The notes under the pieces: model-generated
Told to the model about the DNA's origin: nothing
What the model saw: only the letters and a program-made list of their open reading frames with translations
The model's database searches: none
From: a virus
Lineage: Duplodnaviria > Caudoviricetes
Virus record (IMG/VR): IMGVR_UViG_3300029821_000128
Location: 1 to 38,561 of that record
Strand: one strand, 5' to 3'
Length of the DNA: 38,561 bases
Translations under genes and position numbers: made by a program
Part shown: positions 17,961 through 37,662 of the stretch, one piece after another
Layout: every line of letters starts with the position of its first letter
Position numbering within the stretch: the first letter of the stretch is position 1

Positions 17961-19173
17961 TGGCAACCTCTTCGAGCCAAATATAATACACATCGTTGCT
18001 CGATGTCACTTTCTTAACCTTGAACGATGAATTTCTTGCAAAAAGAACCTCTTGCTCCGCTGGGTTAAACTCAGTAAAATCAGCGCCATTCAGCGACTTG
18101 ATAAACATTTGCACCTGGCCATCGGGATTATAGACGTCGCCTTTTGTTGTAGAGAGAAATTGCTTAAAAGGGAATGTAGCTGATGGCTTAAATTGCGACA
18201 CATAATCTTGAGCGGCCTGTTTATCATTGAAGAAAAGCGACCTGGTAACCTCACCTTTATATTTTGGTTGAGCAGCAATGATCTTATCAAGGCTTTTAAC
18301 AATTTTTTCCTCAGTTTCTGTCAGCGGCGCATCGTCTCTAAGCTTTTCATTCAAAACATAACTGCCACCTGAAACATAAGCATTTACGGCATACTGGTCT
18401 TCATCTTCAAGCTGTTTGGCCTCTTTTATTACGGCATTAAGGCGAGGACGCAGGTCTGGCGGATAATTTTCAGGTTTTGGCTGCCAGACGTCTTTTCCCG
18501 GATTATAATCCCATCCATCAGGAACATGCGGGCTGATTTTGACTGCTTCGATTTCGCCTTTGCTGACTTCCAGGCCCTTCGTTTCAACTTCGAATTTGGA
18601 AAGCGAAACGACCCGACAACGACAGCCCCAGCCGTTCGGCGGGTAATATTTATCCCAGAATGGATCATCATGCCGGAATATTTTTCCGTTAAGCACGCGA
18701 TGAGCGTCTCTGGTTCTGCCGTCCATGACCGCAACGTATTTCCAGTAAGGGCGCAGCCTGGTGCTACCTTTCATTTCCTTGTATCGACCCGCCATGTAGG
18801 CAGTTTGCATATTGGTGCGGTAGATGGTTTTCAATCGCCAGGGCGCAGAAAGATCAACTTCTTTTTGTGAGCCGTCTGGGCGATCAATGTTCTTTTTGCC
18901 CCACCAGCCTTTCTTTTCGAGAAGCAGTTGCAGGTCTTTCTTGAAGCTTTCGAAACTTTTGCCGCCATTCTGAGCGTCCTCGACGGCCTTGCGGATATCG
19001 ACCAGCACGTCGAGTTGAGTGACACCGGCGACGGTGAAGGCTCTGGTGTGTGCTTCGCGCTTCATTTCGTGCCAATCAAAACTGACCTGGTAGCCCTTCT
19101 TTTCGAAGTATTTGATAGCTTCGTCAGGTGGCAGGTTGAAAGCGCCCTTTAAAATGTCGGCATCACCTGGCAT
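17950..19173 (-). CDS. muF: MuF (gp30/SPP1 gp7-like) minor head protein with C-terminal ADP-ribosyltransferase domain, 407 aa
   Basis: AFTVAG, RLKTIYRTNMQTAY.AGR, YPPNGWGCRC MuF motifs; C-terminal AY..G.Y.LNEKLR, VTR, FLSTT, EQEVLF (R-S-E clade ART). Confidence 0.88.
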   Translation of the reverse strand: MPGDADILKGAFNLPPDEAIKYFEKKGYQVSFDWHEMKREAHTRAFTVAGVTQLDVLVDIRKAVEDAQNGGKSFESFKKDLQLLLEKKGWWGKKNIDRPDGSQKEVDLSAPWRLKTIYRTNMQTAYMAGRYKEMKGSTRLRPYWKYVAVMDGRTRDAHRVLNGKIFRHDDPFWDKYYPPNGWGCRCRVVSLSKFEVETKGLEVSKGEIEAVKISPHVPDGWDYNPGKDVWQPKPENYPPDLRPRLNAVIKEAKQLEDEDQYAVNAYVSGGSYVLNEKLRDDAPLTETEEKIVKSLDKIIAAQPKYKGEVTRSLFFNDKQAAQDYVSQFKPSATFPFKQFLSTTKGDVYNPDGQVQMFIKSLNGADFTEFNPAEQEVLFARNSSFKVKKVTSSNDVYYIWLEEVANDE

Positions 19174-20679
19174 TCAGACGCCCCCATACGGCGGCAACGA
19201 AGTAGGCCCGTTCAAGCATTTTGGTGAGAGCATCGAATGACAGGCCGTCGTAAGTTTCGACCAGGTCAGTCATGATCTGCTCATAGCTCTGGCCATTCTC
19301 AATCAACTTAATAATAGGGGCCAGTATGCCTTCAGCCTGCTTTTGCAGTTCAACCGGGTTGATGTCGTCGACAAACTCTTCGACAACAGTCTGCGGATTC
19401 GCTAGTTTGCGAGGCATTCCCAGCCCTTTGCGCAGATAGTCAGCAATTTCTTCCTGAGATGGCACCGCAAAGTTTATCGGCTTGCCGGGTTGCTGGTTGG
19501 CTATCGGTGCCGATGGCTCTGCGAGGTCGAAGTCGTCTTCCTGCAGGTTGTATTCGCGCACGAAGTAGCTTTTCTTAAACTTGACGCCGGCCTGGCCGAG
19601 TTTGGTGTCGCGGTCGGCTTTTTGCGCCAGATCTTCGTCTTCTTCAAAATCGCGCCAGAGTTGCGGCACTGGAGCGCCGGGCATGTTGAGCTCGATAATC
19701 CATTTCACCAGGGTATTATTCAGGCATTCGCACAGCGCGTCAGCATCTGCTTTTGCAGTTTCGAGACGCACTTCGTTGCCGACCTCATCCCTGGCACGGC
19801 TGCCGCCGGCGGTATTCTGATTCGTGGTGCCAGTTTCGCCGAGAACGACTTCAGAGATTTGTTCGTCCATGTAGCGCACGAGCTTTTCGTAAGTGTCGAT
19901 ACCGCTTCTGGCCGCTTCGAGCAAAGTGACTTCCATGCCCTCGGGTATGGTTATGCCACTGTCGCTTGCTATAGCCTGCAAGGCAGCTTTTAAGGCGTCT
20001 TTCTCGCTTTTCGTGGCGCTGGCGAGCCGTATTTGTCGCAGAAAACCAGCCAGAAGGTAATACCTTTACGCTTGAAGAAGACCGGCCAGAAAAGGCTGTT
20101 GCCGAGCGCAAAACCATAAGGGTTTTCATAACGCGGCTCGAAGGTGAATTTGATGAATTTTCTTTCAGGCAGGGGGATGCCCTTGTATGTGTCTCGCATC
20201 GTAAGCAGGCGCATTTCAACACCGTCGCCTTCATCGACAAAAACGAAGCGCTGCGGCTTTCTGAATCTGATCTCGGCCGGTCGGATCTCGTTCTCTTCGC
20301 GCACCCACATCACTTCGCCGACTGAGTAGCCTTTCATGATTGCATCGAGAAAACCTGTGGTAGCTTTATCGATGTCGAGCTTGTCCATGTGTCGGCGAAG
20401 CAGCTCGGCAGATTCTTTGGCCTCAGCGGTATCGTCTGCTTCGTTGACTACCCATTCGCGTGAAGTTACAGCACGTTTGCGTTTGCTGATAACAGTTCTG
20501 ACGTGCGCGTCAGATTCGAGATCTTCGTAGGTATCGAGGGCAAGTGTTCCGCCGCGCGACTGCAAAACCTTGTCGGGATTCGGCAAAATGCCTCCGAACA
20601 GCGGCGTTTCGTCTCGGATAGGTGCTATTTCGACGGTCAGTTCTTTTGAAACGACCTTGGTATCTTTCTTTTTTGCCAT
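19163..20679 (-). pseudogene. Portal protein (Mu gp29, DUF935), split by a frameshift at about 20020
   Basis: 5' part has D.HV....KRK.AV, DAIMKGYSVGEVMW, W..FCDKYGSP; 3' part in another frame has SEVVLGETGTT, GNEVR...KADA; the usual xxGKYP between them is missing. Confidence 0.8.
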
Positions 20680-23406: not shown

Positions 23407-23568
23407 TTAGAATTTGAAATTGAAGCTGGTGCCGATCTTAAAATCAGGCTTCTGGCCTTTACCGACCTTGAGGTCAGCAAAGATATGCCGGGCCTTCAGT
23501 CCAAGACTGACACTTTTCTGATCAGCCTGAACGGTCACTTCGCCGCGTCCAGGCTCGATTGAGGGTTT
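23407..23568 (-). CDS. Unannotated -1 frame extension of holin-like gene (or 43-aa ORF from GTG 23538)
   Basis: Open frame KPSIEPGRGEVTVQADQKSVSLGLKARHIFADLKVGKGQKPDFKIGTSFNFKF* fills the intergenic gap; slippery A AAC CCT at 23562-23568. Confidence 0.65.
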   Translation of the reverse strand, partial: KPSIEPGRGEVTVQADQKSVSLGLKARHIFADLKVGKGQKPDFKIGTSFNFKF

Positions 23569-23933
23569 ACGGTAACAGCTTTCGAGAGCTTATCGGCGGC
23601 GCTCAAACCCTGCGCCATGAGCTTGGCATCAACTTCAAGCGCTTCAGGCAATTCTTTGCCGAAGGCATCTTTGAAACCATCTCGCAGAATCGACATGAAT
23701 TCGCCGTATTTATTAAGCTTGTCGAGTTTGCCTGCTTTCTGCAGCTGTTCGACCAGCGCCCAGATAGGGTAGGCATAGTCACGCACCCAGGGTCGGCCTT
23801 TTTCGACAAGCGCCACGATGCTGTCATCGATAGTGGTTTTCGTTTTCGGCGCAACAGCCTTGAGAATCGCATAGAGCGACATGATCAGCGAAACAACAAT
23901 AGCCACATTGGCCGGGGTCAGGTATTCAGACAT
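23535..23933 (-). CDS. Holin-like membrane protein, 132 aa
   Basis: Follows endolysin; AAGGAG RBS; single N-terminal TM followed by PKTKTTIDD. Confidence 0.6.
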   Translation of the reverse strand: MSEYLTPANVAIVVSLIMSLYAILKAVAPKTKTTIDDSIVALVEKGRPWVRDYAYPIWALVEQLQKAGKLDKLNKYGEFMSILRDGFKDAFGKELPEALEVDAKLMAQGLSAADKLSKAVTVNPQSSLDAAK

Positions 23934-23944
23934 GGTTTATCTCC

Positions 23945-24349
23945 TTAAAATCTGAGGTAAAAATGGGGCCGGTCGACAAACTTCTTATAGTTGCCGCCCC
24001 ACGAAAGGCCGATTTCAGCCGCAATTTCACCCATTCGCGCCCACAGCGCCGGGTCGTTCCAGATCGCGACTTTTCTGCCGTCAACCAGGCGTTGCGGCAC
24101 AGCGTCAAAAGCGAGAGATGCCGGCTTGTTGTTTACGGTATGATTGTGATCACTGCGACCGCCAGGCAGCATCGTCACCTTTTTGCCTGGTTTTGTTCGG
24201 CCCAGCGCGAAAAGATCATCCTGCTCCGCGTTCGAGCGCCAGGTCATATAGATCAGCACATCGATACCGTCTTTTTTGCACAACTGCACAAACTGCCGTG
24301 CCAGTGGCTGCAGCGTCGGATGCAGATCTTCAATTTTTCTGCTCGCCAT
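23945..24349 (-). CDS. Endolysin, peptidase M15 (L-Ala-D-Glu peptidase-like), 134 aa
   Basis: RS..EQ..L...GRT, S.HN, AFD, WGG...FVDRPHF motifs. Confidence 0.92.
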   Translation of the reverse strand: MASRKIEDLHPTLQPLARQFVQLCKKDGIDVLIYMTWRSNAEQDDLFALGRTKPGKKVTMLPGGRSDHNHTVNNKPASLAFDAVPQRLVDGRKVAIWNDPALWARMGEIAAEIGLSWGGNYKKFVDRPHFYLRF

Positions 24350-24369
24350 AAGTCACCTCCTGTTACCCG

Positions 24370-24412
24370 AAAATAGCAATTCCAGGCCAGGCAAAACAGG
24401 TGAAGTGTTTCA
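24370..24412 (-). promoter_or_regulatory. Late promoter 1 (box TGAAACACTTCACCTG, 21 bp, -10 TATTTT)
   Basis: Shared motif and spacing; directly upstream of endolysin, equivalent to Mu Plys. Confidence 0.75.
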
Positions 24413-24415
24413 CAC

Positions 24416-24450
24416 AAAAGAGAATTCCCCTCGAATTTCGAGGGGAATTC
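24416..24450 (-). terminator. Terminator hairpin after the 40-aa peptide gene
   Basis: Inverted repeat GAATTCCCCTCGAA / TTCGAGGGGAATTC (24422-24450) followed by TCTTTT on minus strand. Confidence 0.7.
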
Positions 24451-24497
24451 ATAGAACTAAAAGGTATTTGCTCTCAGAGACAGCCAGTTACCCTATA

Positions 24498-24620
24498 CTA
24501 TTTGCGCTTCTTGCCGCCGAAAGGCCAGGCTTTATAGCCGTAGTCTTTGGCGATCATAAGCTTGCCAGTTCTGTAGTGTCGATAGACAGTTACGTAACCG
24601 TGCTCTGTATGATGATCCAT
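24498..24620 (-). CDS. Unannotated 40-aa basic peptide MDHHTEHGYVTVYRHYRTGKLMIAKDYGYKAWPFGGKKRK
   Basis: Perfect AAGGAGG SD 8 nt before ATG; own downstream terminator. Confidence 0.75.
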   Translation of the reverse strand: MDHHTEHGYVTVYRHYRTGKLMIAKDYGYKAWPFGGKKRK

Positions 24621-24622
24621 AA

Positions 24623-24666
24623 GGTCGTCCTCCTTAAACTATGATTTTCACCTTAAGGAAACGACC
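24623..24666 (-). promoter_or_regulatory. SD-sequestering hairpin in the peptide 5' UTR
   Basis: GGUCGUUUCCUUA pairs with UAAGGAGGACGACC (13 bp, one bulge). Confidence 0.7.
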
Positions 24667-24668
24667 AA

Positions 24669-24697
24669 TTGACAAAAGATCATCTCTGAGTTAATCT
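24669..24697 (+). promoter_or_regulatory. Sigma70-type promoter for an antisense sRNA
   Basis: TTGACA - 17 bp - TAATCT with no plus-strand gene downstream. Confidence 0.65.
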
Positions 24698-24703
24698 TTC
24701 GAT

Positions 24704-24770
24704 AACAAATGATTCGATCGCTGCCTTAACGGTAGCAAAAAACTCAGATGCTCGTAACATCTGAGTTTTT
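24704..24770 (+). ncRNA. Predicted ~67-nt antisense sRNA with two hairpins
   Basis: Between the promoter and a terminator; hairpin GCUGCC-UUAAC-GGUAGC then terminator stem + U5; start position approximate. Confidence 0.55.
24737..24770. terminator. Bidirectional intrinsic terminator
   Basis: AAAAAA-CTCAGATG-CTCGTAA-CATCTGAG-TTTTT; abuts ImmA stop codon. Confidence 0.8.
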
Positions 24771-25356
24771 ACTTTTTCTTCATACTGTTAACTCTATAGC
24801 AGGCTGCCTCATATGAGACGCCAAAAACTTCAGCTATTTCATTAATTGTAGCTCCTTCTCGCAAAAGCATTTCCACTTGAAAAGTAGGCATCAAAAATCT
24901 TGCTGCAAAAGCGTTTGCCTGAATTTCTGGATCTTCATATGGTTTCAGAAATGATCTATTCAGACGTATTCCAGAACTTTCTCCTCGCAAAGAAGTCGAC
25001 TCTCTGAGATATTTCGCGTGAACAGCAATATGACAAATTTCATGCGCCACAGTAAATCTTGCTCGCCCATAACCCGAACTTGATTCATCACCAAGAGAAT
25101 CATATGTTTCATGCGATAGAATTATCTGCTTTGACTTACAAAGAGTCATAGCTTCCACATCTGAAGGCAAATGTTTAATTTGATACTCGTATCCCAACAA
25201 CCATTTCAAATCTGCTTCGAATAGTGAAGCCAAGTCAATCGAAGACGGTTCTTTCAAACTTTCAACAGCAACTCGCTGCCTTATTGCAAGTCCGATGCCT
25301 TCAAGATCGTTCCAGCTTCGCGAAGGGACTCTGGGAACTTTATTATTACTCGTCAT
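24769..25356 (-). CDS. ImmA/IrrE family metallopeptidase (DUF955), 195 aa
   Basis: RARFTVAHEICH (HExxH), EIQANAFAARFLMP, FGVSYEAA HTH tail. Confidence 0.92.
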   Translation of the reverse strand: MTSNNKVPRVPSRSWNDLEGIGLAIRQRVAVESLKEPSSIDLASLFEADLKWLLGYEYQIKHLPSDVEAMTLCKSKQIILSHETYDSLGDESSSGYGRARFTVAHEICHIAVHAKYLRESTSLRGESSGIRLNRSFLKPYEDPEIQANAFAARFLMPTFQVEMLLREGATINEIAEVFGVSYEAACYRVNSMKKK

Positions 25357-25711
25357 CGTCTTTGGGTTTCCCCCTTAATACTTTCAAGATCTGTTCTGCT
25401 TGGTCATCCGTTAAGCCTTTTAGAGCTCTACCCAAAGAGAGAGCTGCATCCAACTGAAGGTCATGCAAACCCTCAGTATCAAGTTCGATATGCTTTCTCT
25501 GCTGAGCCGCGAGCCTCAATAGTTCATTTTCATCCGCACCGATAATTTTCGCTATTTTGACTATTCTTTCTGGACTTGGTGGAGCTCTATGCCCTAACTC
25601 AACATCAGAAAGATAGACAGCGGAACATTCAAGCGCTTTACCTAGCTGTCTCAAAGTTATTCTTGAGTGCTCTCGAAGCTCTCGAACCCTTTCTCCGAAT
25701 TTCTGCGACAT
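25346..25711 (-). CDS. XRE-family HTH regulator, 121 aa
   Basis: ATG 25711 with GAGGAG RBS; FGERVRELR...LRQLG...YLSDVELG.RAPP. Confidence 0.9.
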   Translation of the reverse strand: MSQKFGERVRELREHSRITLRQLGKALECSAVYLSDVELGHRAPPSPERIVKIAKIIGADENELLRLAAQQRKHIELDTEGLHDLQLDAALSLGRALKGLTDDQAEQILKVLRGKPKDDDE

Positions 25712-25782
25712 TCCGTTTCTCCTCATTGTAAGTGCAGTTTGTTCTAGTTTTACTCGAACACATTTACCTGTCACTACATGAT

Positions 25783-25812
25783 ATTATACTGTAAGCTAAC
25801 GAGCTTACGCAA
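25783..25812 (-). promoter_or_regulatory. Promoter of XRE-ImmA operon with palindromic operator
   Basis: TTGCGT - 18 bp - TATAAT; inverted repeat GTAAGCT-N4-AGCTTAC (25791-25808) between the elements. Confidence 0.7.
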
Positions 25813-25851
25813 CCCCTATTTTTATTTTTTTCATAGATTCTGGACTTTGCC

Positions 25852-25878
25852 AAAAAAGCCGGCGAGTAAGCCGGCTTT
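25852..25878 (-). terminator. Terminator of early operon
   Basis: AAAGCCGGC-N6-GCCGGCTTT with T6 tail on minus strand. Confidence 0.8.
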
Positions 25879-25908
25879 AACACAAAATAAGAGAGTTGCT
25901 TTCATCTT

Positions 25909-26352
25909 TTAGACCATAGAAGCCTCCTGAGATTTTGATTCGGGCTCGATCAACTCAAGTCCTGTGATTTTTTTGAATTGGGTTACCAGGGCCTTTGCCT
26001 TTGCAAAAAATGGCACGTAGAAAATCAGTTTTTCACCCAGATCTGGGCATTCTTGAAGAACTCGCTTTTTTCCGTATATTTTGGTCATTGACGCTCGGAA
26101 CTTGGCCCGCCACTTCGCGCGACTTTTTTTACACCAGAACTTCTCAACAAGCGGATTATAATTTTTGTTGTCCTGTTTGTGTGTCCAAGCCGGTCTAAGC
26201 GAGCCGTTGAAATAGACAATCAATCTGCGCTCACCTTCTTTCCATGCTTCTCTAACAACACTGATTTTATCTTTTCCGAGATAAAAATCTTTGCTGCCAA
26301 AATAGCCGGCCAGGTCTTTTTCGATTTCGGCCCATTGCTCTTTTGTAATCAA
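25909..26352 (-). CDS. Conserved phage hypothetical protein, 147 aa
   Basis: TTG start overlapping upstream stop; ITKEQWAEIE N-terminus typical of Mu-like semi-essential early genes. Confidence 0.7.
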   Translation of the reverse strand: MITKEQWAEIEKDLAGYFGSKDFYLGKDKISVVREAWKEGERRLIVYFNGSLRPAWTHKQDNKNYNPLVEKFWCKKSRAKWRAKFRASMTKIYGKKRVLQECPDLGEKLIFYVPFFAKAKALVTQFKKITGLELIEPESKSQEASMV

Positions 26353-26531
26353 GCTGACTTCTCCTTTTTGGCAAGCAAACGACGGCAGGTTTTGCAGTTG
26401 TCTGGCGAATCGTCATTTCCCTGTTCCCGATGACCGGCATACATCCAGGCACGGCATAATGAGAACGGGCCGCTAAAGTAATGGGCTTTTTTTGCTGCTT
26501 CAGGCCAGCCCCAGCCTTCATTGTTTGTCAT
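26349..26531 (-). CDS. Small Zn-binding hypothetical protein, 60 aa
   Basis: GGAGG RBS; KAHYF...SLC..W...NCKTC. Confidence 0.7.
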   Translation of the reverse strand: MTNNEGWGWPEAAKKAHYFSGPFSLCRAWMYAGHREQGNDDSPDNCKTCRRLLAKKEKSA

Positions 26532-36876: not shown

Positions 36877-37662
36877 ATGTCAGATAATGAGAGTAAAAAC
36901 CCAATTACACAAGCTTTAGGCCCCGCTGCCTCAAATTTTGGCAAAGAGATTGCGCCACTGGGCACTGATGCAGGCAAATTAGTTTATGGTATTTATGAAA
37001 CAGTTTTGAAGAAACCATACGACTGTGTTATTGCGATAAAAAGCGAGGCTTGGAAGTATTTTAAATCAAAATTAGATGAAAGGTTGTCGAAAGAAACACC
37101 TGAAAATTTGATTCCACCCAAATTAGCAATAGCCGAGCCGATAATCGAACATGCTGTTCGACTGGAAAACGAGAAAGAGCTTCAAGACATGTTCGCAAAC
37201 CTGCTGAGCTCATCAATGATAAAGAATTCTTCGAATAAAGTGTTGCCTTCTTTTGTTGAAGCTTTGAAGCAGCTGAGCTCTGACGAAGCAAAAATAATCA
37301 AGAGTGTTTTCAATTCGTCATCGCGCTCGTTTGCATGCTTAACAATTAAAGCCTTTAACAAAGAGCGTTTTACTACCGTGCAGGAGTGTTTTTCGTTAAT
37401 CTGCGTGGAAGCAGGATGCGAAATTCCGAACAGAACACACATCTACGTGCAAAGCCTTGCACGGCTTGGCATTCTGCAGCAAATACAGAACACCATGTTT
37501 GCAGATATGAATAAATACAAAGAGCTTGAGCATGCCGTTGCATTGCTAGATCTTGTAAAAGATTACGAAATTCTTGCACCTGGGTGCAATATTGTTTTTG
37601 AAAAAAACCTTGTTCAGCTTACTGATTACGGGAAGCTTCTGTGTGAGGTTTGCGTGAAGTAA
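36877..37662 (+). CDS. DUF4393 / Abi-alpha-like protein, 261 aa
   Basis: PPKLAIAEPIIE, LQDMFANLL.SSM, PSFVE.LKQLS.DEAKI, L.RLGIL, LTDYG..LC..C. Confidence 0.8.
   Translation: MSDNESKNPITQALGPAASNFGKEIAPLGTDAGKLVYGIYETVLKKPYDCVIAIKSEAWKYFKSKLDERLSKETPENLIPPKLAIAEPIIEHAVRLENEKELQDMFANLLSSSMIKNSSNKVLPSFVEALKQLSSDEAKIIKSVFNSSSRSFACLTIKAFNKERFTTVQECFSLICVEAGCEIPNRTHIYVQSLARLGILQQIQNTMFADMNKYKELEHAVALLDLVKDYEILAPGCNIVFEKNLVQLTDYGKLLCEVCVK

Follow-up and report, generated by a model that had tools for sequence, protein, structure and literature searches.

The window, by which we mean the whole 38,561-nt stretch analyzed (virus record IMGVR_UViG_3300029821_000128), is a Mu-like prophage in which transposase A and B, Gam, GemA, Mor, terminase, portal, and major head protein are all recognized, and it matches locus L027, from a Candidatus Riflebacteria genome record, with 0 mismatches across 5.1 kb. 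Between its middle genes and its lysis genes lies a minus-strand insert of lower GC content than its surroundings, coding for an Xre/HTH repressor, an ImmA/IrrE metallopeptidase, and, after a 150-nt gap, a 40-aa open reading frame closed by a terminator (Table 1). The H-E-x-x-H motif of M78 peptidases is invariant (22/22). A perfect 7+4+7 palindrome (25791–25808), present once in the window, overlaps the spacer of the candidate operon promoter and is a candidate Xre operator, which we compared with six upstream regions of homologs. No immune operon adjoins the Xre-ImmA pair, its neighbors being Mu-type middle and lysis genes, and a search of viral contigs for close relatives of this ImmA found none. 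Elsewhere in the window, the portal gene (19163–20679, minus strand) is split into two open reading frames, with 25 nt missing after position 20020 relative to the matching region of G001, in which the portal frame is open over 519 codons; the split is either a variant or an assembly error. An Abi_alpha family gene (36877–37662, plus strand) lies in the AT-rich cargo beyond the repressor.

Table 1. Features of the Xre-immA insert and of the leader of the 40-aa peptide gene (positions are those of the window)
Feature	Position	Strand	Basis or role
Terminator 3′ of the peptide gene	24422–24450	−	Shields downstream lysis genes
40-aa basic, aromatic small protein	24498–24620	−	Family profile; selection in related subfamily
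Segment C: SD AAGGAGG (24635–24629) plus spacer	24623–24637	−	Sequence, folding
Segment B: anti-SD, core 24666–24653 (partner C, OFF; partner A, ON)	24650–24668	−	Folding
Predicted sigma70-type antisense promoter: −35 TTGACA (24669–24674), 17-nt spacer, −10 TAATCT (24692–24697)	24669–24697	+	Matrix score
Predicted ~70-nt antisense RNA, perfectly antisense to A	24704–24772	+	Inferred from promoter and terminator
Segment A: anti-anti-SD, core 24729–24716	24714–24733	−	Outer arm of nascent ON rod with 24650–24668
Intrinsic terminator hairpin, U-tracts on both strands	24738–24770	.	Would end the predicted antisense RNA
ImmA/IrrE zinc metallopeptidase gene (Peptidase_M78, CapP-like)	24769–25356	−	Intact HExxH; PADLOC capP 2e-20, Pfam Peptidase_M78
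Xre/HTH repressor gene, CapH-like	25346–25774	−	PADLOC capH match 1.5e-12
Candidate operon promoter TTGCGT-18-TATAAT	25783–25812	−	Read by eye

The 40-aa open reading frame belongs to a real, widespread, and unnamed family of basic, non-membrane proteins sharing the motif F/Y-V-x-x-Y-x-H-x-R-T-G-K-x-M-x-A-x-D-Y-G-Y-K-A-W-P-F. A near search finds 22 other clusters (23 with its own) and a profile search 190 representative clusters at E ≤ 0.001, in records labelled Riflebacteria, Myxococcota, Acidobacteria-type, Planctomycetota, Nitrospirota, Bacillota, and Proteobacteria. The family is present in 15 of 5,426 Escherichia coli genomes, while within the phylum of the host just 3 of 87 genomes have it; its loci are associated with mobile elements and predicted layered repression. 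The peptide has no match in Pfam, PADLOC, or the PDB sequences; NCBIfam gives a weak, unrelated match for one of 62 family members, and the ESM Atlas returns only hypothetical clusters. PHROG phrog_33859 (function not annotated) matches 16 of the 62, with a value of 1.5e-26 for the E. coli-phage member, and the peptide of the window itself falls short of E 0.01 for this PHROG. The proteobacterial subfamily is tied to the window's peptide through phrog_33859, an invariant A-x-x-Y-G, and gene context, with no direct pairwise match. We found no account of the family or of the cassette in the portions of the literature available to us.

Purifying selection acts on the related proteobacterial subfamily (mean pN 0.10 versus pS 0.68 across 22 distinct 49-codon members). 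The preliminary description of this DNA had called the peptide basic rather than hydrophobic, and the family bears this out: net charge is positive in all 83 members examined (median +8), and one of the 83, with a marginal hydrophobic window, reaches a 17-residue hydropathy mean of 1.6, so that a transmembrane helix of the kind found in DinQ, TisB, TimP, and Hok is not seen among these 83. Lack of such hydrophobicity does not rule out a type I toxin, SymE and RalR being non-membrane type I toxins (PMC8167048). AlphaFold2 models the peptide as a small beta-sheet (a beta-hairpin, a 4-residue helix, and a beta-strand). Fold searches with two peptide models (pLDDT 74 and 90) returned nothing at E ≤ 0.001 or Z ≥ 2, the best viral rows being uncharacterised Siphoviridae proteins at E 0.64 and above. 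In a P2-like phage (L179:2123–2233), the peptide behind Xre-ImmA is itself followed by another small basic peptide (V-H-V-R-R-Y...C-E-H-C); a simple motif search of 71 other loci did not find it. Many enterobacterial leaders (L180:1946–1952 and relatives) have overlapping starts, ATG-n-ATG, after the Shine-Dalgarno (SD) sequence, the first leading into a short out-of-frame open reading frame.

The leader between immA and the peptide gene holds three segments, A, B, and C, which the preliminary description had read as an anti-anti-SD, an anti-SD, and the SD of a two-state RNA switch; their sequences and coordinates, and those of the peptide, are correct. Within the limits claimed for it, the B:C helix has 13 pairs, including one U-G pair, with one bulged G (24630), and it goes on with a 14th pair at 24637 and five further pairs above. 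Of the 14 positions of the A:B helix, 13 are paired, two of them as G-U, and one is a C-U mismatch; the helix continues for five pairs past the 14-mers, where the flanks of C differ from those of A. All three 14-mers had been described as mutually complementary, which is true of A:B and B:C; A and C are imperfect direct repeats of each other. That such an arrangement is unlikely by chance is borne out by shuffling: with the SD-to-ATG stretch fixed, 10 of 5,000 dinucleotide shuffles match the strength of B:C and none of the 5,000 also matches A:B, and when B is fixed and the upstream part shuffled, A:B is as strong in 4 of 5,000.

Folding predicts both of the claimed alternative states, although they are unbalanced, with OFF as the ground state. 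At equilibrium, the full-length leader is expected to have ~13.9 B:C pairs and <0.03 A:B pairs, with an SD unpaired probability of 0.13, and forcing A:B costs 4.1 to 6.0 kcal/mol. Fragments representing a growing RNA behave differently: with the 3′ end at 24650–24635, 12.7 A:B pairs are expected, forming the outer section of a 33-pair rod, which prevails until nearly all of C has been made; by the time the RNA has grown to 24620 it has switched to 13.7 B:C pairs. We therefore predict that ON is a transient of the nascent RNA, an order that comes from equilibrium, pseudoknot-free folding of growing fragments. The energy needed to open the ribosome footprint in the window rises from 13.2 to 23.4 kcal/mol when A is blocked and is 9.7 kcal/mol when the rod is held; the equilibrium leader is OFF with or without blocking of A (SD free 0.11 versus 0.11), and an antisense RNA directed at A would thus matter only if the nascent ON state is long-lived. 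Three other readings of the leader were rejected. Leader-peptide attenuation is ruled out, as the terminator lies after the open reading frame and the downstream genes vary; so is transcription attenuation by B:C, which has no U-tract after it; and the inner palindrome at 24675–24699, considered as an operator, is single-copy and fits the rod's inner stem better.

On the opposite strand, a predicted promoter and terminator define a putative antisense RNA spanning, by its in silico geometry, all of A, with a predicted hairpin (24720–24736) whose 5′ arm and loop contain the complement of A. The promoter also falls in the inner stem of the ON rod, and in this region TTTGTCAA is invariant in 3/3 leaders from the Riflebacteria phylum; a stricter consensus scan of the window did not list it. 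The terminator carries a second U-tract, U6, on the sense strand and probably also stops most Xre-immA transcripts. A can enter an mRNA only by terminator read-through, a point that the preliminary description overlooked, and because of the sense-strand U6 tract little mRNA may contain A.

The antisense unit recurs among relatives. A set of 138 homologous loci was reduced to 125 with the motif and a start, and then to 66 that are non-redundant; manual start fixes, four additions, and the removal of three near-duplicates gave the 71 loci analyzed. Reverse promoters were scored with an approximate sigma70 matrix using our own weights. At a score of at least 7, and with the −35 element at −18 to −66, a reverse promoter is found by this matrix in 38 of 71 loci versus 36 of 194 control open reading frames, leaving 33 loci without one, and a reverse promoter together with a terminator in 21 of 71 versus 3 of 194; the controls are mechanical open reading frames of the same loci, and both contrasts are inflated because these are unmatched for intergenic gap length. 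A test free of that control used 29 distinct proteobacterial leaders anchored on the best reverse −35 alone: a spacer of 17 nt precedes T-A-x-x-x-T in 20 of the 29, and no other spacer length does so in more than 2. The loops of the antisense terminators are often GGCGCCAACC or GTTGGCGC/GTTGCAGC (L180:1790–1830 and other loci). Loops of these types resemble the UUGGCG recognition loops of plasmid antisense systems. A sense U-tract is present on only 6 of the 21 antisense terminators, the window's being one of these bidirectional cases (the antisense tract was required by the search), and, of 82 loci examined, 70 have an upstream gene, co-oriented in 62. Since upstream genes are co-oriented and sense U-tracts few, read-through is the likely source of A-containing mRNA.

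These findings bear on a switch close to the one first read, acting in cis only without an antisense RNA and triggered by temperature, a protein, or a ligand. Both A:B and B:C are beyond chance, as that reading expects, and timP is activated by a purely structural switch (PMC13000454); it leaves unexplained, however, the conserved reverse promoter and the strand-biased terminator, and no Rfam aptamer match was found, nor any Rfam family reaching the gathering threshold at the leader (only two matches at E 3.4 in window positions 23500–26500, both outside the leader, and, among 17 related loci, two C4 matches far from the leader). We regard a cis-only switch as highly improbable. The logic of SD, anti-SD, and anti-anti-SD is itself supported by folding, recurrence, and covariation; what the preliminary description had missed is the antisense promoter and terminator, and it named no trigger.

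Conservation of the pairing had been put forward as a check on the switch, and we find it in part of the family. In the two other leaders from the Riflebacteria phylum, L028 and L141, the sequences of A, B, and C differ from those of the window and the logic recurs: all three leaders form the rod when nascent and the SD hairpin when complete, and opening the ribosome footprint takes 9.7, 6.7, and 9.9 kcal/mol with the rod held versus 23.4, 16.6, and 20.7 kcal/mol with the antisense zone blocked. Covariation near the window is limited to these three leaders because so few genomes of the phylum carry the peptide, and we therefore turn to the proteobacterial subfamily, where A lies in a hairpin loop and B shares positions with both the anti-SD and the SD-hairpin loop. 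A MAFFT alignment was made of 24 of its 35 distinct leaders, two near-duplicates and nine too diverged being excluded. Profile and context alone connect this subfamily with the window's peptide. Pairing in its A:B helix stands at 84.8%, versus 38–57% in slid controls, and six of the seven pairs show changes on both sides; the 24 leaders, which are related by descent, include 14 A/B variants and 11 distinct B sequences. The whole ON structure (14 pairs) beats 500 of 500 shuffles on four of five measures. The SD hairpin is 94% paired, is recovered unaided by RNAalifold, and includes two conserved U-G pairs that could form in the sense RNA only; it shows no compensatory change because the SD is fixed. 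In an alignment-free comparison, cognate A-zone/B duplexes average -9.0 kcal/mol versus -5.8 kcal/mol for swapped ones (permutation p 5e-5, with composition uncontrolled), and 5 of the 18 cognate duplexes are weak, all of them from diverged leaders. Pseudoknot-free folding of five nascent proteobacterial leaders gives A:B in two (L217 and L223).

Covariation of this kind helps to weigh three further explanations. The inverted repeats could be DNA elements, such as operators or cruciform arms, whose RNA folds are incidental, and the tests of strand asymmetry would permit this: the family-wide sense-versus-mirror test is not significant (p = 0.22), nor is an excess of 7 G-U over 5 A-C (p = 0.39), the sense strand is better in 9 of 18 duplex comparisons, a null result, and a further raw count gave G-U 9 versus A-C 4. 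Yet the repeat sequences vary freely while pairing is kept, the SD hairpin has its conserved U-G pairs, and the repeats are unlike the candidate Xre operator, itself single-copy, all of which make this explanation extremely improbable.

A second explanation gives the peptide mRNA its own promoter downstream of A and lets the divergent small RNA pair with the SD in trans, A:B being a by-product of the resemblance of A to C. The two are indeed imperfect direct repeats, and the complement of A pairs with C at -9.6 kcal/mol; there is also a weak sense match in the window (TTGTTA-18-GATGAT, score 6.3) and a good sense promoter near the start codon in L013 and L025. Across the family, however, promoters on the sense strand close to the start are no stronger than in controls (11/69 versus 32/138 at score 8), and in the 11 loci with significant A:B, which were selected on that pairing, A:B is stronger than antisense:C (-19.9 versus -14.1). 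Moreover, only two of the seven B positions lie in the SD stem, and the A:B covariation extends to positions without an SD partner, so trans pairing of a small RNA to the SD cannot explain it. We consider this explanation quite unlikely. The third would have the antisense promoter act mainly through transcriptional interference, termination, or RNase III cleavage of a 70-bp duplex, with the switch secondary. It draws on the perfect overlap predicted for the transcripts over ~70 nt, including the terminator, and on a window leader that is OFF at equilibrium regardless of blocking; for interference, though, neither covarying A:B pairs nor the display of A in a hairpin loop would be necessary, and as the main mode of action it is very unlikely. 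It could coexist with the switch, by analogy with the RNase III cleavage described for dinQ/agrB (PMC5066626).

Taken over the whole peptide family, the switch is clear only in part. A:B reaches p ≤ 0.05 in 11 of 38 loci versus 11 of 194 controls, leaving 27 of the 38 without a significant A:B, and a rod is present in 26 of 38 loci versus 19 of 83 controls. Among these 26 loci, holding the rod leaves the SD free in 14 and hidden in 2; the corresponding figures for the controls are 4 and 7 of 19. Occlusion of the SD is barely above control (32/69 versus 55/138, or 14/48 for controls with an SD).

The genes upstream of the peptide also vary. Peptidase_M78 accounts for 24 of the 62 co-oriented upstream genes and others for 38; leaving aside the proteobacterial additions, it is only 11 of 47. 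In an E. coli prophage (L239:1094–2200), the unannotated leader-plus-peptide module follows a RelE/ParE-HTH type II toxin-antitoxin pair. Six loci (L007, L009, L036, L040, L043, and L054) have, in place of ImmA, an upstream protein of ~150 aa with a coiled-coil-like start, with weak winged-helix matches in two; at L050:155–2623, in one genome, the peptide gene is immediately 3′ of a Cas3 gene; and in a close relative (L020:2327–2563) the N terminus of ImmA is fused in frame to the C terminus of the peptide, with the leader and antisense unit gone, through a natural deletion or an assembly artefact. With M78 at only 24 of 62 loci, and with the E. coli locus behind RelE/ParE-HTH, the module is not bound to ImmA. 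This matters for the main rival as to peptide function, in which the same RNA control governs a peptide that serves not as a toxin but as a cofactor or feedback regulator, either of the Xre/ImmA pair or of other regulators of the phage. The M78 neighbors fit that idea, as does a nascent ON state, which permits the co-transcriptional translation that potent type I toxins avoid (PMC11295053 and PMC6733600); the 38 other neighbors and the RelE/ParE-HTH locus count against it, and we judge it unlikely.

The closest parallels are dinQ/agrB of E. coli and timP/TimR of Salmonella. In dinQ, a duplex of sequences 2 and 3 opens the SD, and binding of agrB to sequence 2 closes it (PMC5066626); the window's module shares an upstream element that pairs with the anti-SD and opens the SD, and an antisense RNA that would bind this element so that the SD hairpin closes. 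Expression of dinQ/agrB is tied to LexA, a repressor cleaved upon DNA damage, a role that Xre/ImmA would take here. The same source describes DinQ as a 27-aa membrane peptide and its primary mRNA as inert until 5′ processing, unlike the basic, soluble peptide of the window and its leader, which is predicted to be ON first; and agrB is a separate gene, whereas the promoter of the predicted antisense RNA is embedded beside the anti-SD and its transcript would overlap the leader perfectly. With timP/TimR the module shares a processing-independent structural switch, in which long-range or pseudoknot pairing frees the SD, and a small RNA that blocks the active fold (PMC13000454 and PMC11295053; see also PMC11228461); the loop-to-B pairing of the proteobacterial subfamily is pseudoknot-like, as in timP. 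TimP, by those accounts, is a membrane protein, TimR is divergent and non-overlapping, and timP mRNA is OFF at the outset and slowly switches ON, an order opposite to that predicted for the window. The module would work like both systems, yet it belongs to neither family: its peptide lacks a transmembrane helix, its antisense gene overlaps perfectly, and it is predicted to be ON first.

Set against the wider type I class, the likeness is partial. SymR overlaps the SD and start codon directly, not via an anti-anti-SD. A soluble small protein under antisense control, as we predict, is shared with SymE/SymR and RalR/RalA (PMC8167048), and unlike SymE and RalR the peptide matches no Pfam family. 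A hallmark of type I systems is a nascent transcript that is untranslatable and activated later (PMC6733600 and PMC11295053), and here folding predicts the opposite, ON first and OFF later, in all three leaders from the Riflebacteria phylum. Sequestration of the SD by an anti-SD in the full mRNA, also a mark of type I systems, is found in silico in the window, in its two relatives, and in the proteobacterial subfamily.

The two upstream genes have their own relatives in CapH/CapP, ImmR/ImmA, and DdrO/IrrE (COG2856-Xre), with which they share the capP/capH matches, the HExxH M78 motif, and a candidate operator over the promoter (PMC13373217 and PMC2701414). In CapH/CapP, ssDNA activates the protease (PMC13373217). 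The window's pair differs from CapH/CapP in that nothing but the 40-aa gene lies downstream of it as cargo, preceded by a terminator and by a leader under predicted antisense control, and the accessible text of PMC13373217 and PMC2701414 makes no mention of a third gene of this type for CapH/CapP-like pairs.

We propose that the leader is an antisense-RNA-gated translational switch, turned ON by read-through and OFF by the antisense RNA, and assign this reading a probability of roughly 0.6; the RNA-level mechanism taken by itself we hold with good confidence. Transcription would read through from the Xre-immA operon, and A would fold with B first, leaving the ribosome-binding site open. By the folding models, the long A:B rod would form co-transcriptionally and then relax to the stabler B:C when C has been fully transcribed, which would leave only a brief co-transcriptional period for translation. 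The ~70-nt opposite-strand RNA, for which the conserved promoter and terminator argue, would mask A and leave B to hide the ribosome-binding site, and output would be set by the ratio of read-through mRNA to antisense RNA. By analogy with CapH/CapP, ImmA/IrrE may cleave Xre after DNA damage and so tip this ratio. We tentatively suggest that the peptide is a soluble growth-inhibiting effector that acts on nucleic acid or on a nucleic-acid machine. The fullest version, a cross-phylum, non-membrane type I module in which Xre/ImmA-driven read-through and a born-ON leader yield an antisense-limited pulse of a 40-aa beta-sheet toxin, is doubtful as a whole.

Known type I systems mostly code for membrane peptides and come from few phyla. 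Here, a dinQ-like RNA logic is predicted for an unnamed family of soluble peptides that extends across several phyla, with a predicted kinetic order, ON first and OFF later, opposite to the type I rule; because the family is found among sequenced E. coli genomes, the module can be tested in a laboratory strain. Stand-alone Xre-ImmA/IrrE pairs were once proposed as parts of three-component toxin-antitoxin systems (PMC2701414), and the peptide is a possible output for many of them. If the fullest version is true, a DNA-damage-sensing protease pair would release a toxin pulse only when mRNA outruns the antisense RNA embedded in its own leader.
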